A DNA stretch of 64,000 nt, taken from contig CAYRWQ010000001.1 of the NCBI GenBank assembly GCA_964428075.1, positions 1,806 to 65,805 on the forward strand. Reading direction: 5' to 3'. Within the stretch, counting starts at the first letter, position 1. Every line of letters starts with the position of its first letter. Below are positions 12,001-18,000 of the stretch, in pieces. Position numbers: made by a program. Origin of the DNA: an uncultured Bdellovibrionales bacterium (GTDB lineage: Bacteria; Patescibacteriota; Minisyncoccia; Moranbacterales; UBA1568).

Positions 12001-15000
12001 GGTTTGTTCTTGATGTCTGGCCGACACCATACTACGGCAGACTGATGGCATCAACACGGCTCCGAGTCTACGATGTCATCCAAAATTTTCAAAACCATCC
12101 ACGGTACTTCCTCGAACTCTACAAGCCATGGAAACACTACGACATAGTGATTTTCCAAAAAAAATTTGACGCTTCAGCATTCAAACTCGCTCAAAAACTC
12201 AAGAAACAAGGAGTAAAAATAGTTCTGGATATCAATGTGAACTATTATGACACCACGATATCGGGTGTCCTCCACAAAAACGAGACACTGAATCACCCGC
12301 TCATTGTCACCTTCACCGGTATCACTGACAGCGTGATCACCAGCACGGAATATATAGCAAATTACGCAAAAAAACTGTTTCCCGGGAAGAAAATAGTCTG
12401 TATCCCAGAAAACATCACCGAGAATTTCTTTTCGGTCAGAAAAAACCCAAGAGATCAACAAGGGCCTCTAAAACTCATGTATGTCGGCTATGCCATAAAG
12501 GCACCAGAAATACTCGACATAGCAACCGCCCTTCAAAAACTACGCGCCAAGTATGTTTTCATGCTACTCGTCATCTGCGAAAAAGACCCAAAAATATCTC
12601 TACCCGGAATCGAGATACTCTACAGACGCTACCGACAAAAACACATTCATCAACAAATGCTCGAGGGCGATATCTGTGTCGCTCCCAGAGATCTGAATCA
12701 GTCTTACAATTTGGGCCACAGTTTCACAAAAATAGGATATCCTATGTCAATCGGAATCCCGGTTATCGCCAGTAAGATTCCTTCGTATGCTGACTCACCA
12801 GCCATACTGTGTGAAAACGAGACGGACTGGTATACTCATCTCGAAAGCCTGCTCACAGATCGAAAAAAACGCGCATCTATCGGGGAGGATGGGATTGCAT
12901 ACTGTCGAAAATATTTTTCCCAGTCGGTGATTACCAAAAAATACATGCGCTTATTTCGGGCGCTCTCAACATCATGAACACGCAAAAACTCATACAATAC
13001 ATGGAAGAGAATAAGTGGCTTATTGGCGCCATACTCTTTTTTATACTCTGGAAATTTTTTCTCATTCACATTCTCTGGCAGGATCGACTCATACCCCCTG
13101 AACCGGATGATTCCTATAACTACATCGCACAGATTACTTCTATTGCAGATTGTGAAGTATTCCATCCATGCTCATCGACCACCATCTCTATACGCGATGA
13201 CTCCGGATTTACCTATCTCTCATACCGCCTTTTCTTCGGACTACTCGCCAAAATCACACACCTTTCTCCACAGACGATATACCATATCAGTTTTTATGTT
13301 GGCACTCTGCTCCTGGCCCTTATCCTCTACCCATTCATAAGCATATTTACCAAAAATAAGCCTCTCATTGCCTGGTCGATATTCGTGCTCAGCTTCTATC
13401 ATGGCTTAGGCGAAACGCATGGTTTCTTCTGGGTTGTACCGAGCTTTTTCTCCGTGCTCCTCTTCTTCGTTCTTGCGATATACCTGCTCAGAGAAGAGAT
13501 AGCAATCAAAGCATGGCTTGTCTTTCTACTCACGGTTCTCTTTACTTTCTCTCACCCAACGAGTATTTTTCTCGTGTTTATTTTTCCTCTGTATCTCTTC
13601 ATTCTCTTTCTCCTCACCAAAAAGACCACTCCGATTCTCTGGAAAAGAGCGGTCTCCGTCATTTTGCTCACCGTCTTTTTGACCATCTTACCAAATCATC
13701 TCCTGCCTCGTCCTGATAATACATCCGATCAAAATGCCTACAGTCTTCGAGCGACTGTCACGAGAGCGCACTCCATCATCACCAAATTAACATCCAAGAA
13801 AGAAACCGGCGAACAAAAAACATCTCACTCAAGTGAAACTCAGTCCACCTTAGCATCCAATCACTCAAGTCAGAATCACTCCACTGTTGCCCAAAACTCT
13901 CAACAGGAATCATTCTCCTGGAGCCAAAAAATCGCTATGCTCCACAACACCTATTTCCGTTTCGTGTGGTTCCACCCAGTGTGTATGCTTCCTTGGCTGC
14001 TTTGTCTTTTCGTTCTGCTCTGGAAACGCACATTCGAAATACTCGCCTTCTTTATTGCTTCCTTGCTCTTTTTTATGGTTGCAACCCTGTTCAATCCATT
14101 TGGCTATCGCTCAGTTATCATTCTCTGGCCTCTCACATACATACTTCTCGCTTTCAGTAGCTGGCATCTCATCAGCATGGTGCGCGAACACACTGCAGCG
14201 AACACCAGAAAAATCCTCCTCGGCATCCTCTGCGCCCTCCTACTCGCCTTTTTCGCCATCAATGCGACTTTTGCATTTATTTTCAATGAAAACATGAGTA
14301 GACGCAATAACTACTTGATCGAACCAGCTCTAGTCGAGTATGTAGTACACAAAATCCCCCTCAATCAGACCGTGATGGTTCCACTTGAACTCGCTCTAGC
14401 GGAAATGTGGAGCCTTCCTGTACTGAGAACCAGAATAACTACGTACGCTGTACAACCAGACTACATAATATTGACTGACCTCACAAAAATACCAGCAGAA
14501 AAAAGATCATTACTTTTTCAAACCGTCGAAAGAGTAGCTGAAAAATTTGGTATCTCGATGCGCCAGGATCGACCGACAGTTCCATATACGAAACCGAGCG
14601 GCTATACCTTCGAAGAAAGTTTCGGCATGTTTGATATATATAAGAAACTGCCCTGAAGCAAGTGGTTCCGGGGCACACCGTCTTGCACAACCAGACTATG
14701 TTGGTTATGCTTTGAAAGGCTCTCGTCTGTTCTGTAACCGTCTATCCTATGCGTGCTCATATCCGTCACTGGCTGGCATCTCAAAGATATTTTTCGGCAC
14801 TTTCTCTCCTGCTTTTGTTGCATATCAACCTGTTCTTCCTCCATCGTATAGGTGACAACTTCTTTGTTTCATCGTTCCTGGCCATCTCTGGAGCGTTTTT
14901 TCTCGTCGTCGGATCGGGAATCAGTATCACAATCATCTTACAATGGCTTCTCAAACGAAAATTCGATTGGTGCGAGTTCCTGTCCCTCTCTTTCGTATCC

Positions 15001-18000
15001 AGCCTACTTATACCACCACTTCTTCTCAATCTGGAATTCTCACTCTTCAAAAACATAGCGGAGTGGTATCCACTCGCGAACAATCTCCTCCTCTGGAGTA
15101 TCGCGTCGACCATCTTATATTTCAACCGAACAACCCTACCGCCACTGCCGAAGAAGGTGCCCTTGCGACATCCACTGATATTCACCCTCTTGTTTGGGAT
15201 TGTTTTCATACTGGTTCAAGTACTGTCTTTCCAACCTCTTCCCGATCTAGATCCCTACAAATGGCTCTTTAAATACACCTACCAATTCGCCAGTCATCTG
15301 CTCGACTCTTCTGAACGCCCTCTTTTTGGCTCATACATTTATATCGCCACCACAGGGATGGGTGTCAGTATATTTCATTTTTTCAAATATGTTTTACCGT
15401 TTCTCGTACTCATGACCATCTTTCCGGCATGGATGGTGGCACGAACCTTCCTCAACACAAACAAACAGTGGATCTTTCTTCTGTTTATCTTCAGTATGCC
15501 GAATGCCATGCTGTACGTCGGAACTGCGATGCCACAAGTGCCCTTTATCATTCTTTCTTACTTCTTTATATTCTTCTTGCTGTACTCAAGCATACGACAA
15601 GATGATTTTTTCCTATACGCTGCCGGTATCTCTATCTTCCTCACCTTCTTTCATCATCAAGCCGCCTTCATTGTACTACTCGCATGGGTCATTCCGGTCA
15701 TATTCGCTAAAAGAAAACCGTTGCTTTCAAATAAGAAAATACTCTTTTTGATAGTACTGGTTCTACTGGTCAACCTACGGCACGTGCAGCCAATGTATGA
15801 ATTTGCTACCCACTGGATATCTCAAATCTTCCTGAGCTCCCTTGAAAAGAGCAGTCCTAACTGGCTCTACCCGACACAATATTCCAACGTTGACCGAAAT
15901 GCCATGGGCTGGAACTCCATCAGTGGTGTCATACAATTTTATGCATTCTATATCGGGCCGATGCTCGGTCTGATTTTATGCTCCTTCATGTGGCTTGTTT
16001 TCCAGAAAACATTCCGTGTTTCCATATTGAAACAGACAAGAGACAGTGTAGCTCTCTCCGTAGCATTGTGCTCTTTCCTCATCTTTTTCACTATCGCGGA
16101 AATTCTCCCCCGGTTTCCTGGTATCGCGCTCCTCCCTGATCGAGCTTGGATTTTTGGCGGGATTTTCTCGTACATTTTCCTGTATCTCATCCTAAAGCAC
16201 GCGCGAGAAATTTCTTCCAAAAAAATGCTGGTCCTCATCTTATTTTTCCTCCTTGGTATCTTCGGAGCGCTCTACATAAACTACTTGAAGCGCTATCTTA
16301 TTTCTCCCCTGCAATTAGAAAGTGCCGAGTGGATACAATCGCATCTGCCACAAGATCGTGTTTTCCTTTCGTACGGTTACAGAAGCCTCTTACCGGTCCA
16401 TGCCAATACTCCGATAGTCAATATCCCCAACGACCTCTATTGCGAGACCGATACGCAGGCATTTCAGACCGTTTTCAAGGATTTGCAATCCAGTACGAGA
16501 ATAAAAGTCATCAATCCACTCTCGCCTCCACCCCCCATATCCGCCCCAATCGCCAATAGATATATCTACAGCTTCAATACCATTCCGTCACTCGATGGAA
16601 AACCCTTGTACATTTACTACTCTCAAGTACACCTAAAAAATCCGTATCGTGAACGTCCATATAGTATGAAAACCTGGGGAATCAAACCATGTCCCGATGG
16701 GCAACTCCTCTTCGACCGCGACCCAGATACATTTCAGCGGATTTACAACAAGAAAGATGCATTTGATGAGGTGATTATCTGGAAAATCTTATGAACATCC
16801 TTGATTTTTCACCCTATTACGCTCCCCATATCGGGGGCATGGAAAAATACGCCGAAGAACTCCATGAACACTTGGCCACACAGGGTTGCGACATTACCGT
16901 CTTCACTCCTCGTATACCAAAATCTATACCCGAGGAGGAAAACAAACCGCATATCCACATTATTCGCTATCCGGCATGCGAGATTATTTTCAATTACCCT
17001 CTCCCATGTGTCTGGGAAAAAGTGTTTTGGAAACAATGGAAGAAGATCAATGCCACACAATTCCATATCACCATTTCCACCGTTCGTTTTTTTGTCCAAC
17101 CACTGATGGCACTCTTTTTCGCCAAAAGACACCGGATTCCTCTCATACATATTGAGCACTGTAGCGACTATGTCAAGAATACATTTATCGTGTCATTCAT
17201 ATCGCGAATAGTCGATATGACCATCGGACGTTTCGCTCTTTCTCACGCCGATACCATTATTGCGCCATCGCAATCAGCCGCGCGATTCGTTCATATCCTA
17301 TCAAGGAGAAAAGCAACTATTATCTATCGCGGCATGCCATTTACTGAAATAGATGCCATTCCTCCAGACAACACACTGCGCCAACGCATCGGAGATAAAA
17401 CAGTAATCATGTATGTCGGTCGACTCATATTTGGAAAAGGAGTTATACGCGTCCTCAGAGCCATACGCTTACTACAGAGAAAAGATATCCTATTCCTCAT
17501 CGTCGGAGACGGCCCAGAAAGAAAACCCCTCGAGGAATACGTGGCTGAGCATGCTCTCTCAGAACAGGTCTCTTTTTTCGGAAACGTTCCTTTTCAACAG
17601 GTGATAAGTATGCTGAAAGTGACAGATATCTTTATCAACCCAAGTTATAATGAAGGACTCCCCACCTCTGTTTTAGAGGCCGGTGTTTGCCGACGCGCCA
17701 TTATCGCGACTTCTGTTGGAGGCACACAGGAAATACTGACTCATAACCAATCTGGAATCATCATTCCGCCCTACAGTACGCAAGCAGTGGCTCAGTCACT
17801 TACCCAACTCTTAGACAATGCTCCGTTGAGAGCCAAACTCGGAGAAAACGCCCGAATGGAAATCGAAGCCAAATTCGACTGGCAGAATACTATCGAAACA
17901 TACATGCAGACGATGAGGTCTTTACGCAAAAAAATATGAAAATCTTTATCCCGTTTACCATCAGAGAAACTGGCGGCACCTCGAGTTTCGCGAAAAAGTT

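Follow-up and report, generated by a model that had tools for sequence, protein, structure and literature searches.

Two membrane protein families of Patescibacteria with a predicted GT-C glycosyltransferase fold and linkage to polyprenyl-phosphate sugar synthase-type genes

GT-C glycosyltransferases are membrane enzymes that put lipid-carried sugars onto targets outside the cell, and they are notoriously divergent in sequence. Patescibacteria are an abundant group with few cultivated members, and little is understood of their cell envelopes. We analysed a stretch of 64,000 nucleotides (nt) from contig CAYRWQ010000001.1 of an uncultivated bacterium of this candidate phyla radiation (CPR) group, referred to below as the window, and describe here two adjacent genes, A and B, that encode large polytopic membrane proteins. 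The structural models of both resemble GT-C glycosyltransferases, and homologues of both are linked to genes for glycosyltransferases of family 2 (GT2) of the polyprenyl-phosphate sugar synthase type.

What defines a three-component system is a lipid-linked donor together with a GT-C enzyme, and new GT-C families are still being founded, such as GT136 in 2024 (PMC11127046). In Streptococcus pyogenes, the DUF2304 protein GacJ binds and stimulates GacI, a synthase of undecaprenyl-phosphate N-acetylglucosamine (Und-P-GlcNAc). The GacI-made lipid is used outside the membrane by the GT-C enzyme GacL, with Wzx-type GacK as the proposed flippase, and PpgS/Rv3632 form the analogous mycobacterial pair (bioRxiv 10.1101/180810). 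Similarly to the GacI/GacJ/GacK/GacL system, the window combines a GT2 synthase, a DUF2304 partner, a Wzx-type protein and polytopic proteins of predicted GT-C fold in one glycan cluster, the GT-C protein would transfer the sugar outside the membrane, and the order GT2-DUF2304-B is kept across Patescibacteria. Unlike in the Gac system, A and B bear no detectable sequence similarity to a named GT-C family (the GacL sequence itself was not directly compared), B has four extra N-terminal transmembrane (TM) helices, and the host is an uncultivated CPR bacterium; in streptococci, the acceptor is polyrhamnose.

The Gtr systems (GtrA/GtrB/Gtr*) and the GT136 pentofuranose system likewise pair a GT2-made lipid-monophosphate donor with a GT-C enzyme acting after export (PMC11127046), and two GT2s of the window match the GtrB-like PDB entry sll0501. 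In contrast to the Gtr systems, a DUF2304 partner is found here in place of a GtrA-like small flippase, none of which was identified, and A and B exceed the usual size of Gtr* enzymes and end in external domains. The pathway proposed below for A and B also follows the ArnC/ArnT logic of a lipid-linked donor and a GT-C enzyme. Both proteins differ from ArnT (GT83) in missing the PMT/PMT_2 models and in their TM helix counts (11 and 15 versus 13), and lipid A would be an unlikely acceptor in a CPR bacterium.

Conserved genes and predicted fold

The two genes are as follows.

12974..14656, + strand: gene A, 560 amino acids (aa), GT-C-fold membrane glycosyltransferase (predicted) of an unannotated Patescibacteria family
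14749..16794, + strand: gene B, 681 aa, GT-C-fold membrane glycosyltransferase (predicted) of a second unannotated Patescibacteria family

A preliminary description had noted both open reading frames (ORFs) as membrane proteins of no recognisable family between GT2 and family 4 glycosyltransferase (GT4) genes, and these observations hold. The ORFs of 560 and 681 aa are present at these positions, both products are predicted to be polytopic membrane proteins, and neither they nor a third polytopic protein of the window, C, has a Pfam or NCBIfam match at E<=1. The flanking genes were identified as GT2 and GT4, with an AsnB-type amidotransferase and methyltransferases among the near neighbours. 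The reported 4-bp coupling applies to the outer junctions but not between A and B: the start of A overlaps the stop of an upstream GT4-like ORF (ATGA at 12974-12977) and the stop of B overlaps the start of the downstream GT4 (ATGA at 16791-16794), whereas 92 nt separate A from B. Scanning of this gap gave no promoter-like and no terminator-like site.

A and B are genuine conserved genes and not chance ORFs, because a word-indexed search of a 5.8-billion-protein collection returned 61 homologue clusters for A and 65 for B, aligned over their full length at identities down to 23-28%. With an exhaustive profile search the B family grew to 403 clusters at the 50% identity level, of which 275 scored E<=1e-30; the best 150 matches of this search were family members only and offered no bridge to a known family. 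The few named homologues of A and B all come from metagenome-assembled genomes (MAGs) of Patescibacteria, Moranbacteria or Moraniibacteriota. A scan with one genome per species yielded 50 B loci, every one in a CPR MAG (Moraniibacteriota, Andersenbacteria, Berkelbacteria and unclassified Patescibacteria); some of these MAGs carry automatic labels such as 'uncultured Bdellovibrionales'. Both families have thus far been seen only in CPR bacteria; they would fall within a well-known enzyme superfamily and act in a well-known type of pathway. Gene callers of other assemblies start A nine codons later (13001 versus 12974), giving 551 aa; the upstream ATG at 12974, overlapping the preceding stop, is favoured because the alignments with homologues begin at the first residue of the 560-aa version. 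Two B-family paralogues stand in tandem at locus L045 (8025..12214), and in the complete Moraniibacteriota genome CP064994.1 (L040, 9824..12107) the B homologue is divided into two ORFs and may be a frameshift or a pseudogene.

Confident AlphaFold2 (AF2) models were obtained for A with the family alignment (predicted local distance difference test, pLDDT, 88.1) and for B (pLDDT 92.3; predicted template modelling score, pTM, 0.93). Both models gave structural matches to GT-C glycosyltransferases only. For B, the top 20 Foldseek matches were all GT-C proteins with probabilities of 0.98-1.00, headed by PglB (E 2.5e-6) and followed by STT3 subunits and ArnT (2.5e-4). Wzy, WaaL and SEDS proteins were absent from the structural matches of A and B. 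The structure prediction and fold comparison proposed in the preliminary description therefore gave the GT-C fold for both proteins, and the transporter match that it had named as contrary evidence did not emerge; for B, no transporter scores better than E 0.3 or probability 0.1 in Foldseek. Its remark that neither protein shows the motifs of such enzymes is wrong for GT-C: in both families an acidic motif opens the first external loop and carries invariant residues. In their predicted topology, A and B each have at least eight TM helices, an N-terminus inside, an orientation that K/R-rich short loops on alternate sides support, and a long first external loop with this conserved motif, and both models are similar in three dimensions to solved GT-C enzymes.

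At the sequence level, the two families stand apart. Searched against all PDB sequences, HMMER profiles for A, for C and for two versions of the B family gave no meaningful match. A, B and C are unrelated to one another by BLASTP, and hhalign comparisons of A with B, of C with A and B, and of each with the PMT_2 protein of the window returned probabilities of only 0.3-1.8%, so that the four polytopic proteins are not detectably related. When Pfam was scanned member by member, DUF6541 appeared in 3 of the 61 A-family sequences, and the 54 B-family members gave one PMT_2 match (E 1.1e-5), two of DUF6798 and one of EpsG (E 0.04); all of these are scattered, weak signals unusable for family assignment. 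The gathering thresholds of PF02366 and PF13231 were not reached by A or B, which had no match at E<=1. By their models, A and B appear to be two members of the GT-C superfamily unrelated to each other in sequence. Since both show the GT-C features at the level of the fold and fall outside PMT/PMT_2 by sequence, and B also falls outside the oligosaccharyltransferase (OST) definition, they represent two new sequence families. The earlier suggestion of novel polymerase or transferase families is accordingly retained for a transferase fold with no Pfam or NCBIfam model, while the polymerase or ligase part, Wzy or WaaL, is disfavoured by the fold. Literature searches on GT-C enzymes or OSTs in Patescibacteria/CPR returned nothing relevant.

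Architecture of A and B

The features of A are listed below.

13094..13111, + strand: PPEPDD (A residues 41-46), acidic motif right after TM1, opening the first external loop
13796..13918, + strand: S/T/Q-rich low-complexity insert (A residues 275-315) in the external loop between TM7 and TM8
14303..14653, + strand: small C-terminal alpha/beta domain (A residues 444-560; AF2 secondary structure), predicted to be extracytoplasmic

The helices of the model and the short K/R-rich loops suggest 11 TM helices for A, with the N-terminus inside and the C-terminus outside. TM1 is predicted at residues 14-35 and is followed by a first external loop of about 60 residues (36-98). In the 61 aligned sequences, P42, P44, D46 and Y50 of the acidic motif region are invariant and E43 and D45 nearly so; PPEPDD is proposed as a catalytic or metal-binding site. 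The same loop holds the nearly invariant C60 and C66, whose conservation would fit an extracytoplasmic position. The next external turn contains invariant G144, G146, H149, G150, W153 and P156; R379 is also invariant and H194 nearly invariant.

The S/T/Q-rich stretch noticed in the preliminary description was located in A at residues about 275-315, between TM7 (220-243) and TM8 (335-350), as predicted. It contains the sole low-confidence part of the model (residues 285-310, pLDDT <50). Across the A family the segment varies from 1 to 85 residues (median 24) and is not alignable family-wide, with a column identity of 0.10 versus 0.44-0.68 in the membrane core. It is a hypervariable, unconstrained and by prediction disordered insert in an external loop, not a conserved element, and its suggested role as a periplasmic stalk or glycosylation acceptor finds no support in these properties. 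A C-terminal soluble domain had been ascribed to the second protein; B does have one, but so does A. In two distant members of the A family, a CBM_11 carbohydrate-binding domain is added C-terminal to the alpha/beta domain.

B differs in its N-terminal part and in several OST-like features.

14749..15120, + strand: N-terminal extension (B residues 1-124), four TM helices ahead of the presumed GT-C TM1
15238..15264, + strand: LPDLDPYKW (B residues 164-172), D-x-D type acidic motif opening the first external loop
16090..16101, + strand: T-I-A-E (B residues 448-451) at the outer end of a TM helix, followed by the conserved ILPRFPGIALLPDRAW
16297..16791, + strand: C-terminal alpha/beta domain (B residues 517-681), 165 residues, predicted to be extracytoplasmic, with conserved aromatics

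B is predicted to contain 4 + 11 = 15 TM helices followed by the C-terminal external domain. The extension helices of the AF2 model (13-34, 38-68, 74-100 and 107-124) lead into a cytoplasmic K/R-rich loop, and homologues cover the query from residue 1. Helix 142-159 would be the counterpart of GT-C TM1; after it come the predicted first external loop (160-207), which holds two short helices, and ten further TM helices. Conservation was read from a close alignment of 54 sequences and a broad one of 41 sequences reaching down to 19% identity. D168 is invariant in both alignments, P165 and Y170 are nearly invariant in both, and D166 is nearly invariant in the close one. R190, in the same loop as D168, is invariant even in the broad alignment, as are H303, Y398, P454, R455, R465 and W678. 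Around the T-I-A-E stretch, E451, P454, R455, P463 and R465 are invariant or nearly so. The letters T-I-A-E are the same as in the TIXE motif of AglB/PglB, and the loop that follows has about 10 residues, far fewer than external loop 5 (EL5) of OSTs. In AfAglB, the TIXE motif is Thr-Ile-Ala-Glu (PMC8342417). The most unusual aspects of B are the four-helix extension and the presence of OST-like features in a protein that lacks WWDYG.

Gene linkage, proposed pathway and alternatives

The genes of the window that bear on the sugar donor are as follows.

6918..7610, + strand: GT2, 230 aa (Pfam Glycos_transf_2), GacI/GtrB/dolichol-P-mannose synthase (DPMS)-like, proposed maker of the lipid-linked donor
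7592..7984, + strand: DUF2304 small membrane protein (PF10066, E 1e-15, 58.3 bits versus a cut-off of 25.5)
6088..6921, + strand: second GT2 (Pfam), 277 aa, with a 4-bp overlap with GT2 6918..7610
30497..31777, - strand: Wzx-type (Polysacc_synt) protein (PF01943, E 3.5e-7) with 11 hydrophobic segments

GT2 6918..7610 matches in the PDB, by sequence, only dolichol-P-mannose synthase (2.5e-10) and ArnC (4e-10); GT2 6088..6921 matches DPMS (1.4e-11) and GtrB-like sll0501 (1.6e-8). For these two and for a further GT2 at 1464..2408, the best PDB matches are in each case polyprenyl-phosphate sugar synthases. By analogy with GacJ and Rv3632, the DUF2304 protein, whose gene comes directly after GT2 6918..7610, is proposed to be the activating partner of this GT2. 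The Wzx-type protein is a candidate flippase for a lipid-linked donor or a lipid-linked oligosaccharide; not all related loci have a Wzx-like gene, but one lies close to a homologue of B or A in L001, L003, L006, L007, L012 and L029.

Among the 50 B loci of Patescibacteria, a recurring unit was identified in the order GT2(~230 aa)-DUF2304-B-GT4-AsnB. Sufficient upstream sequence was available for 44 loci, and 49 were used for the downstream counts. DUF2304 abuts B upstream on the same strand in 28 of the 44, and a GT2 homologue lies within 1.5 kb upstream, again in 28/44; in other genomes, the GT2-DUF2304-B unit is often preceded by a homologue of GT2 6088..6921. Downstream, GT4 directly follows B in 31 of the 49 loci and AsnB is within 4.5 kb, also in 31/49. 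Homologues of A are found a few genes downstream of GT2-DUF2304 in L006, L008, L042, L060, L061, L062, a 294,504-bp contig and the window, typically in the order GT2-DUF2304-GT4-(GT2)-A-GT2/GT4. A polyprenyl-phosphate sugar synthase is therefore encoded together with the GT-C protein, as in three-component systems, in 28/44 loci for B and in eight loci including the window for A. A and B occur together in few loci (the window, L007, L008, L042 and L057).

A and B probably each take sugars from polyprenyl-phosphate carriers and attach them to a surface glycan, in the manner of GacL, GtrC or ArnT. In the proposed pathway, GT2 6918..7610, aided by the DUF2304 protein, would load a sugar onto polyprenyl phosphate in the cytoplasm, and GT2 6088..6921 may charge the same type of carrier with another sugar. 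The lipid-linked sugar would then be flipped to the external face of the membrane, possibly by the Wzx-like protein, and bound by A and by B, each in a membrane-embedded GT-C active site. From the first external loop, the acidic residues of this site would be D45/D46 in A and D166/D168 in B, together with the basic or histidine residues R38, H149, H194 and R379 in A and R190, H303, R455 and R465 in B. The sugar would be moved onto an extracytoplasmic acceptor. This would most likely be the cluster's own glycan, made by its many GT4, GT2 and methyltransferase genes, and the C-terminal external domains of A and B would help to hold that acceptor. We infer a polyprenyl-phosphate donor because of the conserved linkage to polyprenyl-phosphate sugar synthase-type GT2s and DUF2304; a carbohydrate acceptor is hinted at by the CBM_11 module on the two distant A-family members.

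Several observations weigh against this assignment. A and B have no sequence link to characterised GT-C families in Pfam, NCBIfam, PDB profile searches or hhalign against the PMT_2 protein of the window, and their GT-C assignment comes from predicted structures. A GT-C fold can also occur in a protein with no transferase activity, such as PIG-U/GAB1. Within the window, B does not adjoin GT2-DUF2304 and lies 6.8 kb downstream of them, the sole flippase candidate is the Wzx-like gene 13 kb from B, and no gene for a small flippase of the GtrA type was recognised. Among ORFs of at least 150 aa, the only polytopic proteins are Wzx, PMT_2, an LPG-synthase-type protein, A, B and C, and no Wzy, WaaL or initiating phosphoglycosyltransferase was found among the window ORFs scanned. 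Because other ligases are thus lacking and polytopic proteins are few, A, B or C could have a ligase-like role or one in en bloc transfer.

Such a role is the substance of the alternative that B, and possibly A, is an OST-like or ligase-like GT-C enzyme. The GT4, GT2 and methyltransferase genes would then supply an oligosaccharide on polyprenyl diphosphate, which would be flipped by the Wzx-like protein and passed whole to a protein or cell-wall acceptor, with no addition of single sugars from polyprenyl monophosphate. PglB and STT3 subunits are the best Foldseek matches of B, which also has a D-x-D in the first external loop, T-I-A-E at 448-451 as in the AfAglB TIXE and an AglB-like C-terminal domain, and no Wzy, WaaL or other ligase can be recognised in the window beside the Wzx-like gene. 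However, B lacks WWDYG, the motif that defines the OST family (PMC8342417); at the equivalent position behind the last TM helix, B has 'FLSYGYRS' (539-546), which the B family does not conserve. B also differs from STT3/AglB/PglB (GT66) in showing no sequence similarity, with no OST in the PDB at E<=10 for the B profiles from the 54- and 41-sequence alignments, and in its 15 predicted TM helices versus 13. Its gene linkage points to a monophosphate-linked donor and not to a diphosphate-linked oligosaccharide: GT2-DUF2304, a synthase module for monophosphate donors, directly precedes B in 28/44 genomes, and the window ORF scans revealed no initiating phosphoglycosyltransferase. On balance, we regard the OST-like alternative as unlikely. 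A related and still more doubtful idea is that B is a bacterial, CPR-wide offshoot of the OST lineage that keeps the D-x-D, TIAE and AglB-like C-terminal domain, has lost the sequon-binding WWDYG site, has gained four N-terminal TM helices and modifies a non-sequon surface acceptor. If this were true, that acceptor would be a glycan, lipid or protein on the surface of ultra-small bacteria, and the GT2-DUF2304-B-GT4-AsnB operon would be an undescribed envelope glycosylation pathway specific to Patescibacteria.

Two further readings were considered. That A and B serve as transporters or flippases, or as non-catalytic scaffolds with a GT-C fold like PIG-U/GAB1 of the glycosylphosphatidylinositol (GPI) transamidase, is very improbable: transporter folds surface only at the marginal Foldseek values given above, both families have an invariant acidic motif of catalytic type in the first external loop, and bona fide transferases outscore PIG-U/GAB1. 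The transporter form of this reading was rejected on the fold evidence. Wzy-type polymerases or WaaL-type O-antigen ligases would suit a glycan cluster in which a Wzx-like gene is present but neither a polymerase nor a ligase is annotated, and EpsG matched one of the 54 B-family members (E 0.04), but A and B show neither the signature nor the fold of these proteins; this identity was likewise rejected on fold evidence and appears scarcely credible for either protein.

With A and B taken as GT-C transferases, the assignment and the recurrent GT2-DUF2304-GT-C-GT4-AsnB operon provide a testable model of surface decoration, and the two families (~60 and ~400 sequence clusters) could join Pfam or CAZy. 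For the specialist this is useful more than surprising, and the understanding of how GT-C enzymes work is unchanged.

Protein C and the surrounding glycan genes

58596..60410, + strand: ORF C, 604 aa, third polytopic membrane protein, of a family of its own

The preliminary description had considered this 604-aa protein similar to A and B. The likeness is in architecture only, with ~12 hydrophobic segments and a soluble tail; at the sequence level it does not extend to A or B (BLASTP E>=0.4; hhalign 0.3% versus the A and B families). In Moranbacteria, 432 homologues of C were counted, and none of them carries a Pfam domain. The motif FSGRDQG, placed after the third hydrophobic segment, is invariant in the family, and 2 of 35 members show a weak PMT_2 match (0.0031); because of these two features, C is possibly another GT-C enzyme. 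Directly after C, the ORF at 60420..61589 (+ strand, 389 aa) has one N-terminal hydrophobic segment, is S/T/P-rich and has no Pfam match; its product may lie at the cell surface and could be a substrate for glycosylation.

Ahead of the GT2-DUF2304 genes lies another group of genes: a UDP-glucose dehydrogenase (128..1435, - strand), an ArnC-like GT2 (1464..2408, - strand; ArnC E 1.4e-46), a PMT_2 protein of 787 aa (2470..4833, + strand) and an LPG_synthase_TM protein (4849..5964, - strand). The unit recurs upstream of the GT2-DUF2304-B operon in many Patescibacteria loci, for example in L010, L018, L029 and L035, and looks like an Arn-type module for lipid or glycan modification. The AsnB-type glutamine amidotransferase, the conserved operon member, is at 9220..11109 (+ strand). 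With a UDP-glucose dehydrogenase encoded nearby, the glycan may contain an amidated uronic acid.

Two paralogous soluble ORFs, 11943..12977 (+ strand, 344 aa) and 31847..32962 (+ strand, 371 aa), share stretches such as 'RIGF(V/I)LDV.P.PY...MASTR.RVYD'. Pfam gave a sub-threshold GT4 match in one and none in the other, and they are probably a divergent family of GT-B glycosyltransferases. The ORF at 11943..12977 is the coupled upstream partner of A, also in L007 and L008.

Glycan synthesis fills much of the window (128..34785 and 49198..63145). By Pfam, its genes include 7 GT2, ~13 GT4/GT1-type, 2 GT90-like and ~6 methyltransferase genes, along with Ugd, AsnB, a carbamoyltransferase, sugar epimerases/dehydratases, Wzx, PMT_2 and the three unannotated polytopic proteins. 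This is a large glycan investment for a CPR genome that is probably small (~1 Mb). The GC skew is strongly negative (-0.09 to -0.31) in all 2-kb bins of the window (1..64000), irrespective of gene strand, and its running sum declines without a turn to -5.7. This places the entire window on a single replichore and shows a strand bias of unusual strength.

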